Shown: piece by piece, positions 140-39,493 of the stretch | Numbering within the stretch: the first letter of the stretch is position 1 | Layout: each line of letters starts with the position of its first letter | DNA from: a virus | Strand: one strand, 5' to 3' | DNA: 39,493 nucleotides | Virus record (IMG/VR): IMGVR_UViG_3300045988_085990 | Coordinates: 1 to 39,493 of that record | Position numbers and translations under genes: made by a program | The notes under the pieces: model-generated | Database searches by the model: none | Told to the model about the DNA's origin: nothing | The model's input: the letters and a program-made list of their open reading frames with translations, nothing else

Positions 140-2698
140 TTAGTGAAAAACGAACTTACTATCTAAGATACAGTTGATGTCTAACGAACCCTTTTCAGGG
201 AGTTCAATGTCTAATGGTTCCCCTAACAGCTCTTCAGCGTGTCTCAAGAACTCAGCTAAGGGGTCATGCTCAGTGTACAGCTTGACTAACTCTTGTCTAA
301 TAATACGCCGCAATCGAGCCGCTTCACCGAGGGAAGTCCCAAACGAGTCATGTACGGTACTGAAGTTCACACACCCTTGTCTACTTGCTTCATTAATACT
401 CATCATGAGGTGTGTAGCATCTAGGGAGTGGATGAAGTTCGGAGCGACACCTGTAGCTTGCTTGTGTCTGTCTACGTCTTCGTTCTCACTTACTGTCGTT
501 ACATAGATACGATAGCGTGTGGAGGAGTTACCAAGGCGTAATTGGAACGACTCCGTTTTCCGTGCTAGGTACATCTGCTGAATTGGCAGACCCATAGGCG
601 TCACCCATTCGACAGGCATATCCGCTTTTGCAAGAGCCGCGGCAATCTTCTTTAGACATTCCATACCTTCAATGGCGGCAACGACTGTCGTCTGTACTGC
701 CTTCCAAATTAACTTTGCGAGGTACTGAGCCGCTTGTCTTTCACCGACACCAGCAAAGCAAGGATTGTCCGCCACAGTGTCTTCATAAACCTGGTCAGCA
801 AAACCATACTGCCCACTTCCGTAAGCTAGGGTCATGACAGGACGCTTGCATACTTTGCGATTGATACCATGAGCGAGCCACGCTTCCGCCAACTGCTTCG
901 TTCCCGGCCCAAATGTACCATCCTTACGCTGTTTTCCTTTTAAGGTTCCTTCTATAGCATCTTTCTTAACCATTGTCAAGACCTTATCGGAAACTTCTCT
1001 ATAAATATCTGCTGGCTTGTCATGATCAATCAAGTTGACAGAGGAGCCACCAACAGGGTCACGGAGAAGACAGCTGTAGTGCTGAAGACCTGAGCATGTA
1101 CCGTCATATGCGATTGTACAACGGCAGTCAAAACCTGCTAGGGTCTTATGTGTGTCTAAGTATTCTAAAGCTCTCTTGTATTCCATCGTCCATGCTAAAA
1201 ACTGCCACGGCTTGTCTTGTTCTTGCCACCAAGTAAAGTCCAATGGATTTTCAGCACTAGACAAAATGTTCTGCTTGTTTTCCTCTACCCATGTCACACG
1301 GTCTTCCAGAGGAATTTTGTCATGACCTGCCAGCCCTGCCCCATGAATTGACAGCCACTTGAGGGCGTCGTGAGCGTCTTCAGCAGACACGGGTACAGGG
1401 TCAGCATACTGTAGCAATGCCTTTGTCATGTCGTCCCCTTGAGGGTTGAGGCCAGTCGGAATCGGATAGACACGGCCCCGAAAGTCTATGTTCATAGGGA
1501 ACCAGATTTTGTCATACTTTGCAAAGTCCTCAGCTACTCTGAGAATCATTACGGCTCTCAGGGCCTTCCCTTTGCGCTGGTTTTCCTTATGAATGACTTC
1601 TACCATTTTCTTTTTGTGCGCTTTGAACTGCTTGAGTAGCTCTTCATTTTCCTTAATTTCATCGTAAGCATGAGGGAAGCGTGGGAGTTGTTCGAGAGGT
1701 TTTGTCTCTGCTAGTCCTGCTACCCCACCACCAACACTCAAGTAGTGCTTGATTACTTCTAAGACAGGTTTGTTGATTCTATAGGCCGTTGCTTGAATCG
1801 CATTGACAGCTGAGTACAAACTAGACAAATCAAGTTCATTGAGTCTACTAGTATATAACTTGCGTGTCTGTGAAGACCTTGCGTAGGGGATGTAACGCAT
1901 TAAGGTTTTATTCTGAGACAAAGCCCCATAGTAACCCCCGTCCCACATGCTAGTCCATGGTTTCGGAGGAATAATAGTCGGTACATACGTGATAGCCTGA
2001 CCCACACTCTTGTCCTCTGCCTTAGCGATAGCCTGTAAAAAGATGTCCGTGGGGAGAACTTGTAAGGGCTGTGTCTTGCCTTCCTCAGACACTTCTTGAA
2101 AGACAAAGAAGTCCGTTGTTTCCACGAGTACCGCAAGTAATTGCATACCCAGTGTGGTTCGTTCCTTTGCGGTATGTTTGGTGAACGTAAAGCCTACACC
2201 CTTATAGACATGCTCCATGAAATTCCGACGGTACGAGAAATTGACACGCTCTTTGAGGCTCCGGTCAAAACGCTTGTTTTCTTTGTCTTCAAAAAATGCC
2301 ATTGCTTCTACTTCTGGCTCTAATTCAAGGCCGATTGCACCACCGATATTATTGGCAGTGAGGGAACGCCTCACCATAGCACTAATAGTAATTTTCAAAG
2401 ACAACGTAGCGCAAAGCCTAGCCAATTTTTCCGTGTCACCTTGTAATGCGAGTACATAGTCCTTGACGATTTTAGCGTAGGCAGGTTGTACCCCACGTTT
2501 CGGTTTTACGCAATCTTCTACGAACGCTTGTACATTTGCGGAGTACGTTTCTGCTAGGTGGTTCATGATACCCTGACCGACACGAGTCCGTTCATAGGCT
2601 CCGTCAGCTTTTGCCTTATTCAGCATTTGCAAAGCACGGTTTTCTGCTAAACCTTTGTACATCTTTTCAAGTTCTAACTGTTGTTCTAATGTCATCAT
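140..2698 (-). CDS. T7-like single-subunit DNA-directed RNA polymerase (852 aa)
   Basis: Motifs include RGRVYP, TLAYGS, PNFIHSLDATH and TVHDSFGT, with a C-terminal F-x-F-H-type end. T7 RNAP is 883 aa. An SD (GGAGAGAGGAG) precedes ATGATG. Confidence 0.97.
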   Translation of the reverse strand: MMTLEQQLELEKMYKGLAENRALQMLNKAKADGAYERTRVGQGIMNHLAETYSANVQAFVEDCVKPKRGVQPAYAKIVKDYVLALQGDTEKLARLCATLSLKITISAMVRRSLTANNIGGAIGLELEPEVEAMAFFEDKENKRFDRSLKERVNFSYRRNFMEHVYKGVGFTFTKHTAKERTTLGMQLLAVLVETTDFFVFQEVSEEGKTQPLQVLPTDIFLQAIAKAEDKSVGQAITYVPTIIPPKPWTSMWDGGYYGALSQNKTLMRYIPYARSSQTRKLYTSRLNELDLSSLYSAVNAIQATAYRINKPVLEVIKHYLSVGGGVAGLAETKPLEQLPRFPHAYDEIKENEELLKQFKAHKKKMVEVIHKENQRKGKALRAVMILRVAEDFAKYDKIWFPMNIDFRGRVYPIPTGLNPQGDDMTKALLQYADPVPVSAEDAHDALKWLSIHGAGLAGHDKIPLEDRVTWVEENKQNILSSAENPLDFTWWQEQDKPWQFLAWTMEYKRALEYLDTHKTLAGFDCRCTIAYDGTCSGLQHYSCLLRDPVGGSSVNLIDHDKPADIYREVSDKVLTMVKKDAIEGTLKGKQRKDGTFGPGTKQLAEAWLAHGINRKVCKRPVMTLAYGSGQYGFADQVYEDTVADNPCFAGVGERQAAQYLAKLIWKAVQTTVVAAIEGMECLKKIAAALAKADMPVEWVTPMGLPIQQMYLARKTESFQLRLGNSSTRYRIYVTTVSENEDVDRHKQATGVAPNFIHSLDATHLMMSINEASRQGCVNFSTVHDSFGTSLGEAARLRRIIRQELVKLYTEHDPLAEFLRHAEELLGEPLDIELPEKGSLDINCILDSKFVFH

Positions 2699-5422: not shown

Positions 5423-5729
5423 TAGGTATTTCAAACTTTTTTCAATGGTTCTCTATAATAGTATATATAGATAACAATATGTTTTACACCAATACCAATA
5501 GTTTGTTATAGGAATTACCAGCGGTTATATATGGTATTCCCATAGGTTATTATGCATTGGAGTTATGAGTGGTATTCCGGAGTGTAACATGCAGATATAT
5601 AATTTACTCTATTATGCACTTTGGGAATACTCCCCATACCCAATAGTTACCAATAAGAACCCTTCGTATCCCAAACAGTACCCAATAGGTAAGAAAAAAC
5701 GAACAGATGTTCTAAAAGTATAACCTTGT

Positions 5730-5810
5730 GGAATACCAATAGTACATCTGAGGAATATTATGGAATACCAATAGTACACCATAAGAATAGTATGGAATAC
5801 CAATAGTACA
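5730..5810. repeat. Three direct copies of GGAATACCAATAGTACA
   Basis: Copies lie at 5730-5746, 5762-5778 and 5794-5810. Confidence 0.9.
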
Positions 5811-5843
5811 CAATAGGAATAGTATGATAGAACGAATGTTCTA

Positions 5844-5945
5844 AAAAATATAGGTAAGACAAACAGTTAGGCGTACAAACCTTAGGGAATACAAACAGTA
5901 CACATTAGGTATACTATAGAAAAAATATAGGTAAGACAAACAGTT
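5844..5945. repeat. Perfect 25-bp direct repeat AAAAATATAGGTAAGACAAACAGTT (two copies)
   Basis: Copies lie at 5844-5868 and 5921-5945. Confidence 0.9.
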
Positions 5946-5955
5946 GGAGGTAGAC

Positions 5956-6051
5956 ACAGTTAGTAGTTAAAGAAGTTAGAAGTAGGAACAGTTAGGAATA
6001 CAAACAGTTAGTAGTTAAAGAAGTTAGAAGTAGGAACAGTTAGGAATACAA
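5956..6051. repeat. Perfect 48-bp tandem duplication
   Basis: acagttagtagttaaagaagttagaagtaggaacagttaggaatacaa occurs at 5956-6003 and again at 6004-6051. A third unit starts (acagtt) at 6052. Confidence 0.95.
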
Positions 6052-6315
6052 ACAGTTCACAGTAGGAAGCCTTAGGATACCGAATAGTTCGCAGTGGAAA
6101 TATTGAGTAATGAGAATATTCAGGGATACGAAAGAATACAGGGGTATACGGGGGAACTGCTGTGTGCTGTTCATTCATGTATGTGCTCATAAATTTTTCT
6201 ATGATTTTACTTTTAGGGTTTTCTAGGGCTATCCACGGAGAATAACCCTAGTAAACACATGGGAAAAGATAAGTATAAGGAGGAAAGTAGAAAAGGAAGT
6301 GTTTTTACTTTGTAA

Positions 6316-6541
6316 CACCTAACTGTAATACTGAAGGATTCCTTCAGAACACTAAAGGACTCCTAACTGTAATACTGAGTGATTCCTTACTGTTTTATAT
6401 AAGGAGTAGTTGTTGGTGCTGTTCCTTAGTTAGTTCCTATGGAGTTCCCTTAGAGTTCTCTTAGGGTTCCAGTTGTGTCCCCTTTGAGTTCCTAAGGTTC
6501 GGTGTTCTTTAGGATACTAAAGGACTCCCAACTGTAATACT
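6316..6541. repeat. Dispersed repeats and a palindrome downstream of the right-end promoters
   Basis: A 26-bp repeat actaaaggactcc(t/c)aactgtaatact lies at 6351-6376 and 6516-6541. A partial copy lies near 6318-6335. The perfect palindrome CTGAAGGA-T-TCCTTCAG lies at 6331-6347. Confidence 0.85.
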
Positions 6542-6608
6542 AAGGAATACTAAGGAATACTAGAGGAACAGAGGAAATACTTAGATATACTTTAGTTTTC
6601 CTCTGCCT

Positions 6609-6632
6609 TCCTTCTGTATGTGTGACAATTAA
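6609..6632 (-). promoter_or_regulatory. Putative phage-RNAP promoter after the terminase, pointing into the repeat/terminal region
   Basis: Minus strand reads TTAATTGTCACACATACAGAAGGA. Confidence 0.7.
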
Positions 6633-6636
6633 CGAC

Positions 6637-6660
6637 TTTGTATATATGTGTGACAATTAC
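6637..6660 (-). promoter_or_regulatory. Putative phage-RNAP promoter variant overlapping the terminase stop codon
   Basis: Minus strand reads GTAATTGTCACACATATATACAAA. The TAA of TAATTG (6657-6659) is the stop codon of the terminase large subunit. Confidence 0.6.
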
Positions 6661-7277
6661 CATTTCTTCTTCATAATGTTCCTATTACTACCTACATCTT
6701 CTTCTACTCCATACATCATAGAGAACAGCCCTCTATCTTCATCCAGAGCTGTCTCCAGAAACTCTTCTAACTGCTCATCCAGTCCAGTCTGGTAATCTCT
6801 ATCCATGACATCTAACCAGTAAGACACAGCCATAGTCAGGGCATCTAAGCGGTCATCGTGTGCCAAGGAACCCCTATCTCTACTTAGACGGGTCATCTGG
6901 TAAATCAGCGAATATTTCTGTCCCTTTTCCTCGTACACGCTGTAGTCATCTCGAATAACTGTTTCAGCCATGATAATCTTGTGTCTCATCATAACAGGCT
7001 CTAAGGTGTCTATAATACGAGCTTCCTTCTGTACTGTGTTCTTCACTTCCTGAACCGCACAGGGATAAATACTCGTTAGGATAGGCTTGAACAGCTGGGT
7101 GAACATACCGTCACCAAAGTTTGCTTCTACTACAATCTCATTAACTCCATGGATTTTAGCCTTGTTAGCCAGCTGTGTCAACACGGAATCTGAGTAACCG
7201 TCCTGAAAGCCCCCCACTTCTACTACAAAAAGATACCCATTCAGGTACTTCACGATAGCGTAGGCCGTTTCGTCCTT
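6657..7277 (-). CDS. Terminase large subunit, exon 2 (206 aa plus stop)
   Basis: It continues the T7 gp19 alignment exactly after DPSGRG: KDETAYA, GGFQDGYSD, NFGDGMF, YSLIYQMTR, ALAHDDRLDAL. There is no ATG or SD of its own. Confidence 0.9.
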   Translation of the reverse strand, partial: KDETAYAIVKYLNGYLFVVEVGGFQDGYSDSVLTQLANKAKIHGVNEIVVEANFGDGMFTQLFKPILTSIYPCAVQEVKNTVQKEARIIDTLEPVMMRHKIIMAETVIRDDYSVYEEKGQKYSLIYQMTRLSRDRGSLAHDDRLDALTMAVSYWLDVMDRDYQTGLDEQLEEFLETALDEDRGLFSMMYGVEEDVGSNRNIMKKKW

Positions 7278-8087
7278 CAATCAGCCTATTCGTTCTGCTT
7301 TCCAACCCTTTGAGTGATGTCGTTTTCCTTTAGCCACTAGACGTAAATTTTGGGGTGAAAGATTATGCTCTCTGCAAAAAACAGCAAAAGAAAAAGGCTC
7401 ATATATCGTACCATCAGGTGCAATGAGTCTGAATTTTTCACCCTGTCCATAATTATGAGGAACATTACCTTTTTGAAAAGTAGTAGGATGACAGTCACCA
7501 CATACTGTCCCTGACTTGCGTTTTGGTAAATATTTACCACAAATAGGACAACGAACTGTTTTTCTGTTTCCACCTGCCATTGAGTTCCACCCCATATTCA
7601 TTTTAGGGCGTAGATTATATTCCATTGCTAATGCTTCTTCTTTTGGTAACATAGCAATTAAATCAATTTGAATATTATCCTTACCCAGTTGTCTTAGAAT
7701 TGTGCCAACAGGTCTCTTACTACACATATGCTGACTAAGACGATAGGAAAGACTACGGCGAGTAATACCCACATAACCTTCCTGTATATTTCTGTTTCCT
7801 ACTTCATGAATATGGTACACTTTATATAATCTTGTTTTTTCTCTAAACAATAATATCACTCTCTTTTCTTTTTAGTGTTACGGTACTTCGTTAGGGTACC
7901 TCACTATATTGCTATAGTGTTCAGACTATATCTTCTATCAAAAGATAGTGCGCTGTTTCCACCGAACCATTGCGGTGTACTAATAGTCGTTGAACGTTTC
8001 CTATAAAAGGACTTCGCTGCTGATTGTCTTAGAAAGAGTTCCCAGCAATTAAACGCATTTTTTAACGTAGGAGCAAGGACGTATTTT
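7278..8087 (-). mobile_element. Group I intron (810 nt) in the terminase large subunit gene, carrying a GIY-YIG homing endonuclease ORF
   Basis: The 5' exon end AGGGGU pairs with intron GCUCCU (8069-8074), with a U.G pair at the splice site. The adjacent intron GUCCUU (8075-8080) is a perfect complement of the first 6 nt of exon 2 (AAGGAC), giving P10. The intron ends in G. The region 7860-8060 has several hairpins, including a GCAA tetraloop. Confidence 0.8.
7281..7859 (-). CDS. GIY-YIG homing endonuclease (intron-encoded, about 192 aa; start uncertain, GTG or TTG)
   Basis: It has YKVYHIH...GYVGIT...R..H...E.N (the GIY-YIG module), a Cys4 zinc finger (CPICG...CGDC), NUMOD3-like FQKGNVPHN and a C-terminal HTH-like segment ending KGW. 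Confidence 0.85.
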   Translation of the reverse strand: MILLFREKTRLYKVYHIHEVGNRNIQEGYVGITRRSLSYRLSQHMCSKRPVGTILRQLGKDNIQIDLIAMLPKEEALAMEYNLRPKMNMGWNSMAGGNRKTVRCPICGKYLPKRKSGTVCGDCHPTTFQKGNVPHNYGQGEKFRLIAPDGTIYEPFSFAVFCREHNLSPQNLRLVAKGKRHHSKGWKAERIG

Positions 8088-9185
8088 ACCCCTACCCGAT
8101 GGGTCTATAGCCATAACACACCCTGTATACTTAGCTGTCTCCTTGCTTCTACTATGCTCACGGTAGAAAAAGTCACCCTTAATGGCGACACAGGGAAGGT
8201 CGTTCAGGCGATACTCATAACCACTTGACCAAGACCACTTCAAAGAAGTTTCATCCATATCCACATTAGACACTATCAAGTCCTGTGTCTTCAGGGGGTA
8301 TTTTTCGTAGTCAGACAAGTTAGTATTCAGTTTGAACTGCAAAGAAAACCCTGCTTTACCATAGGAGAGCCTACGTTCCTCGATTTCTTCTTCAGGGAAT
8401 CTGCGAGGGTCAGTCGGCTTTCCTGCGTACAGCGTGGGGTTTTTGTCGTAAGGGATAGCAATAAAAGGAGCTAATTTGTCCCCGTAATACTCACGTTCTT
8501 CAGGTGTCTCAGGGTATACCAATGGAAAAATATAGCAGGAATACCCACGATTCTGAAGCTCATTGTACAGCGACATTTCGTTCTGTGGAGTACCGAGGTA
8601 TATAACCTTACTTCTATCCCCCGGCTTGATAATAGCGTCAAATTCCTTTACATCCTCAAACAGCTTGTCTCTCCGTGTCTGTGTGCTGGAGTTGTTGGGT
8701 ATCTCCACGTCATCGGCGATCAATATGTCTGCACGGCTCCCTGTTATCTGACCCGTAATACCAACAGACTTTACAGAGGGGGAAATATCCGCTACGGCTT
8801 CCCCAACATCAAAAAGGTTCTGTGTGTTACGCTGTCCGTCACGAGGTTTTAGATGAGACAAAAAGTCTAGTAAGTAGATTATCTTTCGGATAAACACTGC
8901 GTTTGCATCTGCTCTGTCTTTACTTGCAGAGATAATGAGACACTTCAGTTGAGGGTCATTCCAAAGTGACCACACAACATAAGCACAAGTGATGAAGGAC
9001 TTAGCTACCCCACGGAACCCTTCAATAATGTATCTCTTCTCAGGGCATTTCATAAGAAGAGTTGCGATTGCATACTGTATGTCTGTTGGTTCAGGAAGAG
9101 CGATTTCATACCAGAGAATAAACAGGAACTTCCTGAAGTCTTTCTTAGCCGCTTCAATTTGCTCTGCTGTCCATTGAACTTGCAC
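8088..9185 (-). CDS. Terminase large subunit, exon 1 (366 aa; GTG start)
   Basis: Strong by-eye match to T7 gp19: FRGVAKSFITCAYVVWSLWNDPQLK, SPSVKSVGITGQITGSRADILIADDVEIP, VIYLGTPQ, YGKAGFSLQF, IDPSGRG. AGGAGG lies about 9 nt upstream of the GTG. Confidence 0.93.
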
Positions 9186-11874: not shown

Positions 11875-13545
11875 TTAGTATTTAATTTGTGCAATCAGAC
11901 AACATGCAGGGGGCTGTACGGTATCAGAGTTACCATAGATACTAGAAGAACGTGAAGCATCGAATGTAAACCCATTACCACGGTTAACATGTTGCTCATC
12001 CATACCTAGATGTGAGAACCCTGTAGTGTAATCAGAGAACGCACCACTAGCGGAAGTACCAGCGCCCCAGCCATATGCAGTATCCCCAGGAACTACTGCA
12101 CCTGTAATATTTGGTAATCCTGCACTCTTTGTGCTTAGTTCATCCCCTCCCTGTAAGACTCTCCCCATTGCATTAGGAACCTTTAAAGTATCTGCACTTG
12201 CATCATAAACGTACTTTGTAGCACTATTGGCGCTCCATTCACTATCAGACACACAAAGATTGTTGTCCTGAGCAAATTTAAGTAAGCGAGGATATTCACT
12301 AGCTTTTACTGTTGCTCCATTCGCCTTGATGTATCCATCATTCAGTGTAGGCTTAAGAACAATGTCACCCACACGGTTGCCATCCCTTACATCATCAATG
12401 ATAAATATAGCTGTTCCGTCTGTAATATATTGGCCTGCAAGCTGTGTAGTACCTAAGGCAGGTGGTACAGAGGTAGCTGTTGTGCCTGCTTTAACACATT
12501 CTAATCTTCCCCATGAAGGTAAGTAAGAGGAATATGCAATATCACCTATGGAGTACGCTTTATTCCTCTTCAACATATTGAAGTCCATAGCGTTCTCAGT
12601 GGCTACCCTTGCGCTTTCAGCGGCGTTCTGCTCAGACACACGAGCGGCATTTTCAGAATCCTTAGATTTTGTTTCCGAGGACTTAGCATTGGTTTCAGAA
12701 GTCTTTGCATTAGCTTCCGATGTAGCCGCTTTTGTTTCCGAGGATTTAGCATTGGTTTCAGAAGTCTTTGCGTGTGTCTCAGAACTCTTAGCGTTCGTTG
12801 CGGACGTTGCCGCTTCCTGCGCCTTCGTTTTGCTATACAAAGCCCACTCTTTAGCACTCTGTGTCTTCCCTGTGGTACTATCCGTATCCGCTTCACCATC
12901 TGGAGAATCCGTAGCTTCTGCCCACTTCTTCGCCTTTTGATGAGAGCTTTCGGAGTTGGTTTCAGAAGTATGAGCATTTGTCTCCGAGGTCTTAGCGGCT
13001 TCCTGAGAAGTCTTTGCGGCGGACGCTTGCTTCGTTGCTTCCTGTACCAAGATTGTATTGGTCGTTACAAAACCGTTCTGTACGCTTTCCATGTAGTGCT
13101 TCGTTACTGCGTCTTGAGGGTCTTTGGGGTCTTTTACGTTAATGACACGAGAACCTAAAGCATTAAAATTAACCCCATCAGGATACCTAGACAAAGAGTT
13201 TAGTATAGGGTAGTCCTGAGCTTCTTCAATAAGGTGTAACTGCTGTAAATTCTCCAGTGTCATCTGAGACGCCTTAATAAAAGCCCCATCTGTCCACTCA
13301 ACAATCCTGTCCGAAGGAGTCTCACGGTATACCCTGATAGCTACTCCCACGGCAGGAGTATCCGTTAGGGTAACGCTACGGTCATCCACAGTATAGTCAG
13401 TAAGGTAAGTGAGGGGAGGAGTATCAGCCCCCACTTGTACCTTCACGAACTGCTTATTGATATAGTCGAACCCAAAGTAAAATCTATTTGTAGAGCCATC
13501 TCCCACAAAGGAAACGCTCGCTTTCAAGTTTTGAATATTCACCAT
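11875..13545 (-). CDS. Tail fiber (556 aa): T7 gp17-like N-terminal adaptor, repetitive coiled-coil shaft, tail-collar-like C-terminal domain
   Basis: The N-terminus (GDGSTNRFYFGFDYINKQFVKV ... VEWTDGAFIKASQM) resembles T7 gp17. The shaft has AKTSETNAKSSETKA-type repeats. The C-terminus (ANGATVKASEYPRLLKF ... LKVPNAMGRVLQGG) resembles a phage tail collar domain. Confidence 0.88.
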   Translation of the reverse strand: MVNIQNLKASVSFVGDGSTNRFYFGFDYINKQFVKVQVGADTPPLTYLTDYTVDDRSVTLTDTPAVGVAIRVYRETPSDRIVEWTDGAFIKASQMTLENLQQLHLIEEAQDYPILNSLSRYPDGVNFNALGSRVINVKDPKDPQDAVTKHYMESVQNGFVTTNTILVQEATKQASAAKTSQEAAKTSETNAHTSETNSESSHQKAKKWAEATDSPDGEADTDSTTGKTQSAKEWALYSKTKAQEAATSATNAKSSETHAKTSETNAKSSETKAATSEANAKTSETNAKSSETKSKDSENAARVSEQNAAESARVATENAMDFNMLKRNKAYSIGDIAYSSYLPSWGRLECVKAGTTATSVPPALGTTQLAGQYITDGTAIFIIDDVRDGNRVGDIVLKPTLNDGYIKANGATVKASEYPRLLKFAQDNNLCVSDSEWSANSATKYVYDASADTLKVPNAMGRVLQGGDELSTKSAGLPNITGAVVPGDTAYGWGAGTSASGAFSDYTTGFSHLGMDEQHVNRGNGFTFDASRSSSIYGNSDTVQPPACCLIAQIKY

Positions 13546-33027: not shown

Positions 33028-34815
33028 TTAATCACTATCACCTGCCTTATTGTAGATACGCAACCCAGCTTCCTTCTGTCTTGCTTCGGAAAAACTAGAA
33101 ATACGTTTGAGATAACCAATGACCCGTGTCGCATAATCAATGTCTTTGGAACCACACTTTGTACAGTGATTTTCCGTATTGACATTGATAAAACCACAGT
33201 CATTACACAATGTCATGAGAACGTTAAATGTCCAATAATTTACTCCCAGCTTCCCTGCCATACAAATCAGTTCATACGCCTGTTCCTTAGACATAAGCTG
33301 TTCCAAATTGAGATGACAAGCAGAACCACCATCAAGCCACTGCGTATTTTCCTTTCCATGAAGTCTCAGTTTGTCGATAATGTTATAGGAGTCATCTTCT
33401 ACAGGGAAGAAATAGCTGTTGTAACATCCCCGTGGAACCTGCAAGCCATCTTCCTTGTCCCACTTTGCGTTTTTGACACCGAGGTTTTCGGCAGGTACAA
33501 ATTCAGTATTAAACTTAACACCTGTCAGCTTCTTCCACTCTTTGTTATTATCATAAATTTCCTTGAGATACTGAGAGAAGAAGGTTGTGTCGGCTTTACC
33601 TCGTTCAAACTCAGACGCTTCCAGCATCCCATTAATACCAATGGTGCAAAACTGCTTGTCTAAGCTAATAAATCCTGTAGAGTAAGCAGGAAGCAAGCCA
33701 CCTTCAATGTAGTCCTCGATGACAGCTCTGTGAGCCAAGAGGTACATATGGACTCGTCCAAGTAACTTTGAAAACGCTTCTTCCTTTGTCTGTACATAAC
33801 GATTCATATTGATCGTGATGACCTGTACGGAACCTGTAGACACCCCACCTGCACCCAATGTATAGGAGAATGTGTTGTCCGTGAACTCGTTACGCAAGCG
33901 ACAGCAGGAAGACAAAGAGTCTACACTATCACTCTCATAGACAAAGAAGCTCAGGCCCTTAGACATTTCCTCAGCACATGCCCATGCAAAATGTTTGTCT
34001 TTCGGTTTCCCTTCAGCATCCACCAAGAGGGAAGCGGTCAGTACGGGATACGTGAGTAACGCACGTTCTCGCTCTTGTCTAAACCATTCCATAAAGAACA
34101 TCTGCAATTTGCGGAATGTACCTTCGTATACAGGCTGTGTCCCGTCGGGAAACTTAAAGCCCCCAAACAGCTGCTCAAAGTAGAAACGGTCTAATACCGA
34201 GATATTCCAGAAGACACTCTGATTACCACGAGCAGAAGCAGGCTGATTCAAGGCATACACTACACCCTGCAAAGCCTGTCTAACATCCGCTGTATGCAAG
34301 TCAATGTAGTCATCTCCCCATGTCTTCTTTGCAAAATAATCAAAATACAAAAGGAACTCTACCGTAGCGATAGCCCCTGCAAATCCAGAAGCCACCTGAT
34401 ATACAAGGTTGACAAAGGAACCACAGAAACTATGGATGTTCCTTGGTGCTTCGCTTGTGCCTCCCAGCGGTTTCGTACCATGGAGTAGGAAGGGGAAAAG
34501 TGTGATAGACGCACAGTAAGGACGTAAGGAAGTTTCATCATGGATATAAATTCTATGTTCTTCGATGTCCTCAATGTACTTCTCAGCTAACTTCTCACCA
34601 TACATCTCCGTGAGTTTCCGCTGTACTAAAGCACGGTTTACCTGAATGGTATCAGGCTTATACATCTCAGCTTCCAAGATACCAATATTCTTTGTGTCTA
34701 CATTGGCATTAGCATCCACCAAGGAACCACTTGCACTGTTCTGACTGTGAATGTAGTGGTCAATGTATTTAATTTTCTCTTCAATCTGTTCTTTTGTTAA
34801 ATTAAGTAACGGCAT
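33028..34815 (-). CDS. nrdD: Anaerobic (class III) ribonucleoside-triphosphate reductase NrdD (595 aa)
   Basis: C-terminal zinc ribbon CNDCG...CTKCG followed by the glycyl-radical motif TRVIGYL. It is adjacent to the activase gene. Confidence 0.92.
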   Translation of the reverse strand: MPLLNLTKEQIEEKIKYIDHYIHSQNSASGSLVDANANVDTKNIGILEAEMYKPDTIQVNRALVQRKLTEMYGEKLAEKYIEDIEEHRIYIHDETSLRPYCASITLFPFLLHGTKPLGGTSEAPRNIHSFCGSFVNLVYQVASGFAGAIATVEFLLYFDYFAKKTWGDDYIDLHTADVRQALQGVVYALNQPASARGNQSVFWNISVLDRFYFEQLFGGFKFPDGTQPVYEGTFRKLQMFFMEWFRQERERALLTYPVLTASLLVDAEGKPKDKHFAWACAEEMSKGLSFFVYESDSVDSLSSCCRLRNEFTDNTFSYTLGAGGVSTGSVQVITINMNRYVQTKEEAFSKLLGRVHMYLLAHRAVIEDYIEGGLLPAYSTGFISLDKQFCTIGINGMLEASEFERGKADTTFFSQYLKEIYDNNKEWKKLTGVKFNTEFVPAENLGVKNAKWDKEDGLQVPRGCYNSYFFPVEDDSYNIIDKLRLHGKENTQWLDGGSACHLNLEQLMSKEQAYELICMAGKLGVNYWTFNVLMTLCNDCGFINVNTENHCTKCGSKDIDYATRVIGYLKRISSFSEARQKEAGLRIYNKAGDSD

Positions 34816-38434: not shown

Positions 38435-38936
38435 TTGCTTTTGTCTCCTTTGTTTCTGTGGTAGACCCAAAGCCACCACTGCGTTTTTTGTTTTGGATAG
38501 GGTTAATGTGTTTTCTTTCCTCTGTATGTGTGACAATTAATTCAAATCCCCACTTCAGGGTAGAAAAAGGCACTAATTGTGCTATCCGAGTACCACTTTT
38601 GATATGAATTGAGTTTTTAGACAAATTGTCAAGTAGTAAGCAGATTTCTCCTTTGTAGTCTGAGTCAATCAGACCGACGCCATTAGACAAACGGAGAGGA
38701 GTCTTCAGGCCAACACTTGACCGTAACATAATATGTACTTGCATCCCTTCAGGAATATCTAAAGAAAATCCCAAGGGGACTAATGTTCCTTTACCCCGAA
38801 TACTGAACGGCTCAATGACGACATCATCAGGGACAACAAGGTCTGCTCCTGCTGAACCCTGTGTCTTGATTTGAGGTACTTCAATGCCATCCCGTAAGGG
38901 TTTGAATACGATAGACAAAGGTTTTTTAGTCCTCAT
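38424..38936 (-). CDS. dut: dUTPase (170 aa from the ATG at 38936)
   Basis: Motifs GSAGADL, RSSVGLK, GLIDSDYKGEI, RIAQLV and C-terminal RSGGFGST. Confidence 0.92.
   Translation of the reverse strand: MRTKKPLSIVFKPLRDGIEVPQIKTQGSAGADLVVPDDVVIEPFSIRGKGTLVPLGFSLDIPEGMQVHIMLRSSVGLKTPLRLSNGVGLIDSDYKGEICLLLDNLSKNSIHIKSGTRIAQLVPFSTLKWGFELIVTHTEERKHINPIQNKKRSGGFGSTTETKETKANEN
38517..38540 (-). promoter_or_regulatory. Putative phage-RNAP promoter embedded in the dut coding sequence, upstream of the SSB gene
   Basis: Minus strand reads TTAATTGTCACACATACAGAGGAA, identical to copies 32-55 and 39381-39404. It is read in-frame as ELIVTHTEE between dUTPase motifs 4 and 5. Confidence 0.7.
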
Positions 38937-39380: not shown

Positions 39381-39404
39381 TTCCTCTGTATGTGTGACAA
39401 TTAA
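39381..39404 (-). promoter_or_regulatory. Putative phage-RNAP promoter, immediately upstream of the first DNA-metabolism gene
   Basis: Minus strand reads TTAATTGTCACACATACAGAGGAA. It lies 30 nt upstream of the ATG at 39351. Confidence 0.75.
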
Positions 39405-39456
39405 TTTTGCCCTAGGAATACTTAGGAATACCTAACTATACTTACTCCTAAATAAT

Positions 39457-39493
39457 CTTCCTTTAGTTACTTAGGAATACTTAGGGGTTCCTC
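39457..39493. repeat. 37-nt terminal overlap (second copy of 1..37)
   Basis: Identical to nt 1-37. Confidence 0.95.

Follow-up and report, generated by a model that had tools for sequence, protein, structure and literature searches.

A group I intron with a predicted homing endonuclease in the terminase large-subunit gene of an uncultured T7-like gut phage

The IMG/VR virus record IMGVR_UViG_3300045988_085990, which was analysed over its whole length of 39,493 nucleotides (nt) and is referred to below as the window, contains a gene coding for the terminase's large subunit (terL) that is broken in two. The terL frame reads ...VMAIDPSGRG up to position 8088, continues for 12 codons into an insert (KIRPCSYVKKCV, then a stop codon), and is picked up again at 7277 (KDETAYA...), 810 nt downstream, as a first-pass annotation of the window had described. 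The locus raises the question of whether the two halves give one terminase after removal of the insert from the RNA, or are made as separate polypeptides, and of what the reading frame inside the insert contributes. TerL is a standard marker used to find and classify tailed phages, and where terL carries introns the gene callers output two or three "terminase" open reading frames (ORFs) plus an endonuclease; recognition of the intron restores a single protein of 572 residues. The split gene and its insert are located on the minus strand, as are all genes of the window. The best explanation is, in our view, that terL is split by a mobile group I intron which carries a homing endonuclease gene and would be removed by splicing, and we give this reading a probability of about 90%.

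The split terminase gene and its ribozyme

Exon 1 of terL (8088-9185) has 366 codons from a putative GTG start at 9185 and ends in ...AIDPSGRG, the last codon being GGU at 8090-8088. It belongs to the PHROG terminase large subunit group and is colinear with the T7-type terminase chain PDB 8dgc_E. Exon 2 (6657-7277) starts with KDETAYA, comprises 206 codons and a stop, and holds the RNase H-like nuclease domain. When the exons are joined from 8088 to 7277 the sequence reads ...GGUAGGGGU/AAGGACGAA... (here and below a slash within an exon or protein sequence marks the insertion point), and the spliced TerL aligns with the solved structure 8dgc_E over residues 11-546 (E 6e-183), with no gap at the junction ("idpsgrgkdetgya"). 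The Pfam family PF22530, the T7-terminase RNase H-like domain, is matched by exon 2 alone at positions 8-108 (124.8 bits) and by the spliced protein contiguously at 1-108 of 108 (140 bits), the full span being reached only after the exons are joined.

An alignment with intron-less homologs, which the first-pass annotation had put forward as a check, gave the same result. A human-faecal phage contig (CIDPSGRG/KDETGYA) and Roseobacter phage CRP-804 are both ungapped at the junction, which places the insertion point at IDPSGRG/KDET, and among 2674 records of GenBank phages a single uninterrupted piece covers at least 80% of the junction-spanning query in 1894. The split gene is a T7-type large terminase (gp19), colinear over its full length and with an intact nuclease domain once spliced. 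The insertion separates DPSGRG from KDE, where the RNase H-like nuclease domain begins, and is inside the first catalytic strand of that domain.

The insert itself (7278-8087, 810 nt, with the 5' splice site after U8088 and the terminal omega-G at 7278) is a group I intron. A search with the Rfam group I model, the other check put forward earlier, found RF00028 at 8176-7902, with a score of 80.4 bits and an E-value of 4.9e-19 where the gathering score is 50. This is the sole Rfam match in the window, and the homologous introns that were tested are also all above the gathering score. The intron consists of about 228 nt of non-coding RNA followed by an ORF of 192 codons, that is, of the core first and the ORF last, the layout that had been read at first pass. 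Homologous elements were collected from IMG/VR by a search with an alignment of the ORF homologs, which yielded 40 loci with a related ORF (L006-L045), all in T7-type terL genes and all at the DPxGxG/xDE boundary.

Eleven helices (P1, P3, P4, P5, P6, P6a, P7, P7.1, P8, P9 and P9.1) were tested for covariation in 17 non-redundant cores, including that of the coliphage K1E intron. The cells of this alignment were paired in 92% of cases, compared with 71% in column shuffles, and 40 of the 59 pairs had changed on both sides; none of 500 shuffles reached the paired or the double-change value. As a control the 3' partners were slid by 1-3 columns, upon which pairing fell to 33-45%. Compensatory changes support all 11 helices. 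The P7 helix, which has six base pairs (bp) and a bulged base and forms a pseudoknot with P3, is 100% paired in these cores, with exchanges of A-U to G-C and of U-A to C-G. The Rfam match, the covariation in every tested helix and the colinearity at the junction are all in line with the group I intron that had been proposed to split TerL at DPSGRG/KDE.

In the window the ribozyme core extends over 7882-8057, as placed by the Rfam alignment, the coordinates, the covariation and the minimum free energy (MFE) fold. It starts with P3 (8057-8052/7954-7949), P4 (8047-8042/8023-8018), P5 (8037-8027), P6 (8017-8015/7996-7994) and P6a (8011-7999), and these are followed by P7 (7990 and 7988-7984/7928-7923, with C7989 bulged) and P7.1 (7977-7960). 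The P8 helix is a minimal one, with the 5 bp CUAUC (7948-7944)/GAUAG (7939-7935) and a UUUU loop, and is joined to P7 by J8/7 (7934-7929), while P9 (7919-7902) has a GCAA loop and P9.1 occupies 7900-7882. When the window sequence is folded on its own by MFE, P1, P3-P6a, P7.1, P8, P9 and P9.1 are recovered. The four hairpins quoted in the first-pass annotation were correct only in part, since one had been mis-transcribed: CUAUCUU is present and AAGAUAG is absent on the RNA strand, and the real pairing there is the CUAUC/GAUAG of P8.

The splice sites can be read from three short pairings. In P1 (8067-8095) the exon sequence GUAGGGGU (8095-8088) pairs with the internal guide GCUCCUAC (8074-8067); the U.G wobble at the splice site (U8088.G8074) is as noted before, and the helix extends to 8 bp. 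Directly 5' of this guide lies the P10 guide GUCCUU (8080-8075), which pairs in 6 of 6 positions with the first nucleotides of exon 2, AAGGAC (7277-7272), and the perfect complementarity already remarked upon is thus confirmed. The third pairing is P9.0, in which U7280 and U7279 pair with A7920 and A7921 of J7/9, followed by the terminal G7278; these 3' splice-site elements (7280-7278) come directly after the UGA stop of the endonuclease ORF (7283-7281). In the relatives the P1 guide tracks the exon, for example exon GAACUGGU with guide GCCUGUUC, and P10 is found in four versions (GUCCUU/AAGGAC, AUCCUU/AAGGAU, AUCUGC/GCAGAU and GUCUGU/ACAGAC). P9.0 also covaries (AA/UU, AC/GU and GA/UC), and both of its pairs are formed in 13 of 17 distinct sequences. 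All 5' exons end in U, and all introns end in G, as had been observed for the last intron base of the window. The mRNA sequence alone is ambiguous, a splice shifted by +1 or +2 giving an identical product, and the junction is set at 8088/7277 because only this position has U before the 5' site and G at the end of the intron. The Rfam alignment had placed P1 and P2 inside exon 1, an assignment which was rejected in favour of the P1 that co-varies with its guide.

No P2 is assigned, because nine A-rich nucleotides join P1 to P3, and there is a single hairpin (7977-7960) between P7 and the 3' strand of P3. The IA2 criterion is the presence of P2 together with a P7.1/P7.2 hairpin pair at that place, and the subgroup is therefore left as "IA-like", with no formal assignment; the K1E intron has been listed among the homologs of IA2 introns (PMC2504315). 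A blastn comparison of the intron with GenBank phages recovered only the P3-P6 core of about 70 nt, which is common to many unrelated phage introns, and this match is of no use for the ancestry of the intron.

The endonuclease and the probable recent transfer of the intron

The ORF in the 3' part of the intron (7281-7859) has 192 codons from a GTG at 7859, or 189 from a TTG at 7850, and ends with TGA at 7283-7281. The stop is 3 nt before the 3' splice site, so the ORF runs as close to the intron end as had been stated at first pass. The TTG is the likelier start, because the relatives begin with MF/YR-EKTRLYKVYHI (F or Y at the second residue). A hairpin that might sequester the start was sought, and nothing conserved was found. 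The predicted protein has a GIY-YIG-type domain at its N-terminus (about residues 10-97), a CxxC...CxxC zinc ribbon (residues 104-123) that serves as the interdomain linker and is deleted from some of the relatives, and, at its C-terminus, a DNA-binding domain (about residues 140-190) like those of I-HmuI and the NUMOD families. The last 50 or so residues resemble the DNA-binding region of I-HmuI (1u3e), both by profile (E 0.0026) and by Foldseek (E 3.2e-4).

The family assignment comes from relatives of the ORF. Database searches gave 67 homologs with 49-90% identity, one of which is labelled as a protein of an uncultured Veillonella sp. In 37 aligned homologs Y12, Y15, Y29, G31, R40, H44, E80 and N92 are invariant, and these residues presumably have the catalytic roles that we assign to them by analogy with I-TevI. 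The GIY-YIG family PF01541 is matched by 19 of the 37 (E<=0.01) and the I-HmuI NUMOD-like family PF22083 by 26 of them. The curated PF01541 cutoff of 22.6 bits is exceeded by P0022 (28.3 bits, 66% identical to the window protein), P0060 (31.8 bits) and the homolog in Klebsiella phage Henu2_3 (24.5 bits), the homologs above the cutoff being 52-66% identical to the window endonuclease. The ORF is accepted at the family level as a GIY-YIG-type homing endonuclease, as predicted from the first reading, because of these close homologs and conserved residues and not because of its own Pfam score, which is not significant.

With regard to mobility, a search with exon 1 gave 80 related terL loci, and the intron is present in only 3 of them. 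The 12 closest terL relatives (84-99% amino acid identity) are all uninterrupted, with L054 at 93% nucleotide identity, and an intron-less site of the L054 type reads ...ATGGCTGTTGACCCTTCTGGTAGGGGT/ACTGACGAAAC.... The introns of L006-L009 are 99% identical to that of the window in the core and 95-96% in the ORF. Their terL exons are only about 59% identical to those of the window, while the last 30 or so nucleotides of exon 1 are 97% identical.

This local similarity can be resolved to single positions. Within 150 nt on either side of the insertion point there are 9 positions that set the window apart from all 7 of its closest intron-less relatives, and at 9 of 9 it carries the base of the L006 type. 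Six of these donor-type positions cluster at -21, -19, -13, -10, +2 and +3, and they define a patch (7275-8108) that encloses the intron and includes about 24 nt of exon, from -21 to -1 (8108-8088) and from +1 to +3 (7277-7275). The patch is limited at -28 and +12, where the donor type and the window differ. It changes V-DPSGRG/T-DE to I-DPSGRG/K-DE and makes exon 2 pair perfectly with the P10 guide. Such a patch has the appearance of a co-conversion tract, the pattern expected from homing initiated by an endonuclease, and the short upstream tract fits, as we take it, cleavage some tens of bases upstream, in the manner of I-TevI. The intron was probably acquired recently and is probably an active mobile element. 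The intron-minus siblings, the probable donor lineage and the donor-type exon patch are all found in public data, so that the window intron would be a clear natural instance of an intron that has homed recently among uncultured gut phages, and the L054-type site offers a defined substrate on which the endonuclease can be tested.

Weighing the alternatives

Several observations weigh against a mobile intron that is spliced out. An in-frame TTG (7280-7278) stands directly before exon 2, and 7280 accordingly appears as an ORF start in the ORF list. For the core, the MFE fold gives a modest z-score of -2.09. Since the intron has no P2 and no structured 3' domain after the ORF, an efficient choice of the 3' splice site may need translation or the help of a protein. 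The window endonuclease has no match to PF01541 even at E<=10, and a Foldseek search of its AlphaFold2 model against the PDB found no GIY-YIG structure and only the C-terminal DNA-binding domain. The model has a predicted local distance difference test (pLDDT) score of 85.6 overall and above 90 over residues 11-80, and its N-terminal domain has the order beta-beta-alpha-alpha-beta-alpha. A Pfam scan of the protein alone gave weak zinc-ribbon and NUMOD matches only, and phmmer against the PDB gave nothing meaningful. An hhalign comparison of the family profile with the intron endonuclease of Ralstonia phage BOESR1 aligned mainly the C-terminal part (probability 73%) and left the catalytic domain unsettled.

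The TTG would have its natural place in a fractured gene, in which the insert stays in the RNA, exon 1 with its 12-residue tail and exon 2 from the TTG at 7280 are translated independently and assemble non-covalently, and the endonuclease is free-standing. A weak AGG is indeed found 4 nt upstream of the TTG, and GenBank annotators enter such loci as two terminase coding sequences. The earlier statement that exon 2 has no start codon was thus too strong as worded. The codon is TCG or AAG in some relatives and is therefore not conserved as a start, and on this ground the fractured gene was rejected. Furthermore, the split is inside the first strand of the nuclease fold, and a complete, covarying group I core with guides that track the exons lies exactly between the halves. 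We consider separate translation of the halves to be very improbable. An intein was also considered and rejected, because of the stop 12 codons into the insert and because no intein domains were found in the Pfam scan.

A different matter is whether the intron splices autonomously, or only with the help of translation, a phage protein or a host protein, so that it would not react on its own in vitro. Besides the lack of P2 and of a 3'-terminal structured domain, the 3' splice site is about 580 nt away from the core and the ORF ends 3 nt from it, all of which would suit a need for assistance. Yet the T4 sunY intron, whose layout is comparable, self-splices, and all elements of the catalytic core of the window intron, together with P10 and P9.0, are intact and conserved. 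Phage group I introns that splice in vivo and fail to do so in vitro have been described (PMC11878797). On balance an obligatory dependence on such help seems unlikely to us, although it deserves some weight.

It could also be argued that the endonuclease is an inactive relic and that the intron arrived by ordinary homologous recombination. The insignificant Pfam score and the N-terminal domain with no structural match would be explained in this way, and plain recombination would also leave a short donor patch. The ORF is intact, however, and the GIY-YIG-type residues are invariant over the 37 homologs, down to about 50% identity, which indicates purifying selection. The donor tract is closely centred on the point of insertion, and one and the same intron-endonuclease unit is found in terL genes that differ by about 40%. 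These features point away from a relic, and we regard it as distinctly improbable.

Following the reading as a mobile, spliced intron, the pathway would be as follows. The terL gene would be transcribed as one pre-mRNA, in which the 5' 206 nt of the intron are predicted to fold into a compact ribozyme, with P1 and P3-P9.1, no P2, and one extra hairpin between P7 and P3'. The 12-nt internal guide (GUCCUU-GCUCCU...) would align the end of exon 1 (P1) and the first six bases of exon 2 (P10). Exogenous guanosine would attack after U8088, and the 3' splice site, about 580 nt downstream, would be set by P10, the 2-bp P9.0 and the terminal G7278. Once ligated, the exons would again encode ...IDPSGRG-KDET..., the nuclease domain's first catalytic strand. 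From the 0.58 kb at the 3' end of the intron an endonuclease would be made that combines a GIY-YIG-type domain with a zinc ribbon and a DNA-binding domain like that of I-HmuI. In a mixed infection this enzyme may cut an intron-less terL close to where the intron inserts, and the break would then be repaired from the intron-plus allele, with the intron and a short stretch of flanking exon being copied in. We infer the splicing, the endonuclease activity and the position of cleavage from sequence comparison.

Genome context and relation to known introns

Positions 1-37 of the window are identical to 39457-39493, and the window is accordingly a circularly closed assembly of a genome of about 39,456 bp. 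The assembly is permuted, and the RNA polymerase gene (140-2698, minus strand) adjoins the start of the window. The gene set is T7-like, with a single-subunit RNA polymerase, primase/helicase, DNA polymerase, NrdD, portal, capsid, tail and internal-virion proteins. A megablast search of GenBank phages with 25 kb of the window gave no match, which shows that the phage itself is not among the deposited isolates. The NrdD-like anaerobic ribonucleotide reductase is encoded at 33028-34815 and is in keeping with a host that lives anaerobically in the gut. Positions 12646-13017, within the tail-fibre gene (11875-13545, minus strand), have a tandem periodicity of 21 nt (7 codons).

The sequence TATGTGTGACAATTAAC (plus strand; GTTAATTGTCACACATA on the coding strand) is present six times, at 40-57, 2718-2735, 6617-6634, 6645-6662, 38525-38542 and 39389-39406; one copy immediately precedes the RNA polymerase gene, and two others are found at the stop of terL. 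The six copies are candidate promoters for the phage polymerase. None is located within the intron, and the endonuclease is thus left with no obvious promoter of its own. A long non-coding stretch (5490-6560) separates the early end of the T7-like map from the late end, with repeats of 16-nt periodicity at 5939-6066, AATACCAATAGTAC... repeats spaced by 32 nt at 5732-5820, and three copies of ACTCCTAACTGTAATACTGA at 6315-6553; it may be the genome-end or terminal-repeat region.

Among the relatives of the intron, P8 is absent from about half of the homologous terL introns (L010:2207-2446, L012, L013, L014-L030 with coordinates 2276-2500, and L033-L035), and also from a second intron at L014:3455-3687. 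In these P3' is followed by 5-7 nt and then by an invariant AAGAUAUAGUC; in the Rfam alignments the P8 segment of about 59 positions is down to 0-1 nt, and the scores are still 52-79 bits. The P8-less introns interrupt an essential gene. A literature search on natural group I introns that lack P8 found no report of them. It is tempting, if somewhat speculative, to see here a lineage of pared-down group I ribozymes that have no P2 and whose 3' site is set only by P10, a 2-bp P9.0 and a terminal G, elements which adjoin the endonuclease stop or overlap with it; we hold this to be possible, with rather more doubt than confidence. If the P8-less variants splice, P8 would be dispensable in a natural group I intron, and a natural graded series, from a P8 of 5-7 bp to none, would be available for the study of minimal cores.

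Further insertions in terL were seen in related T7-like phages, after the Walker B "ADD" at residues 159/160 (L006, L008 and L013-L017), at residues 179/180 (L027) and near EANFG at about residue 420 (L018, L028 and L030); L003:1241-1486 is also listed among them. Those at L008 802-1051, L006 1393-1587, L018 3228-3626 and L014 3455-3687, and intron 1 of Henu2_3, are group I introns by Rfam. A related terL may hold as many as three group I introns, which lie at conserved motifs, while the window has one, and terL is an intron hot spot in this group of T7-like phages.

The first-pass annotation regarded a terminase intron as not described for T7-like phages, and this view has to be abandoned. 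A terminase intron containing a homing endonuclease gene has been published for the Autographivirinae phages K1E and phD2B, the latter a Lelliottia phage (PMC4246154), and the group I intron in the large terminase gene of K1E has been listed elsewhere (PMC2504315). In addition, Henu2_3 and about 40 IMG/VR contigs have their insertions at the same codon boundary as the window. An intron of this kind in terL is already known in T7-like phages, of which the window is a further example, and it leaves the current understanding of group I introns and of terminases unchanged. Homologs of the endonuclease are found in terL of several isolated Autographiviridae, namely K1E, phD2B, Vibrio phage VEN and several Klebsiella and Salmonella phages, and at the level of endonuclease matches only there are similar ones in phages ZH4, P284 and PA28.

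In K1E the endonuclease gene gp40.5 lies between 40A and 40B, in a terL of the same T7/SP6-type family, and the intron has the same order of core and ORF, with an Rfam group I match of 63.6 bits at the end of exon 1. The K1E endonuclease is homologous to that of the window (36% identity over 94%), and both introns are inserted in the DPxGxGxDE nuclease motif. The K1E site, as read from P1 GCUGGU/GCCAGC and P10 ACCUCU/GGAGGU in its sequence, is unlike that of the window in being 6 nt (two codons) upstream, at DPAG/GGKNGDE, and the K1E endonuclease differs in having no zinc ribbon. The hosts of the intron also differ, K1E and phD2B being enterobacterial phages and the window a gut-metagenome phage. 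A closer counterpart in position is the second terL intron of Klebsiella phage Henu2_3 (PQ394119), which is inserted at the identical codon boundary (DPAGCG/GDE) and has an Rfam group I match of 59.6 bits; its endonuclease is 51.6% identical, is annotated as GIY-YIG and is above the PF01541 cutoff. Henu2_3 differs in an additional intron at the Walker B motif, a longer P8 and the lack of a zinc ribbon, and in GenBank its gene is annotated only as split terminase coding sequences. The intron of BOESR1 is at a different terL site (EANFG/DG) and has an unrelated GIY-YIG-like ORF.

Group I introns in terL have also been reported outside the T7-like phages, in prophages of the Bacillus cereus group (PMC2504315), in Lactobacillus phage LL-H (PMID 7496530, as cited in PMC9610469) and in Bastillevirinae, where terL genes have several introns and splicing was shown experimentally (PMC11878797). 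They resemble the window intron in lying at conserved motifs of terL, sometimes several per gene, and differ from it in insertion site and endonuclease, the terminase lineages and phage families being unrelated. In T7-like phages group I introns are found in other genes as well, as in Pf-WMP3 (PMC3428280) and as reported by Bonocora and Shub (2004), as cited in PMC11878797.

With respect to the classical T4 introns, the window intron shares features with two of them and differs in host gene, in the absence of P2, in its single P7.1-type hairpin and in its lack of a structured 3' tail. In the T4 nrdD (sunY) intron, which encodes I-TevII, the core likewise lies on the 5' side of the ORF, and the 3' splice site comes far downstream. 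I-TevI of the T4 td intron is a modular enzyme with a GIY-YIG domain, a zinc-finger linker and a C-terminal DNA-binding domain, which cuts upstream of the insertion site with co-conversion of exon sequence. The window ORF is predicted to have the same modular order, with a DNA-binding domain that resembles that of I-HmuI and not that of I-TevI.

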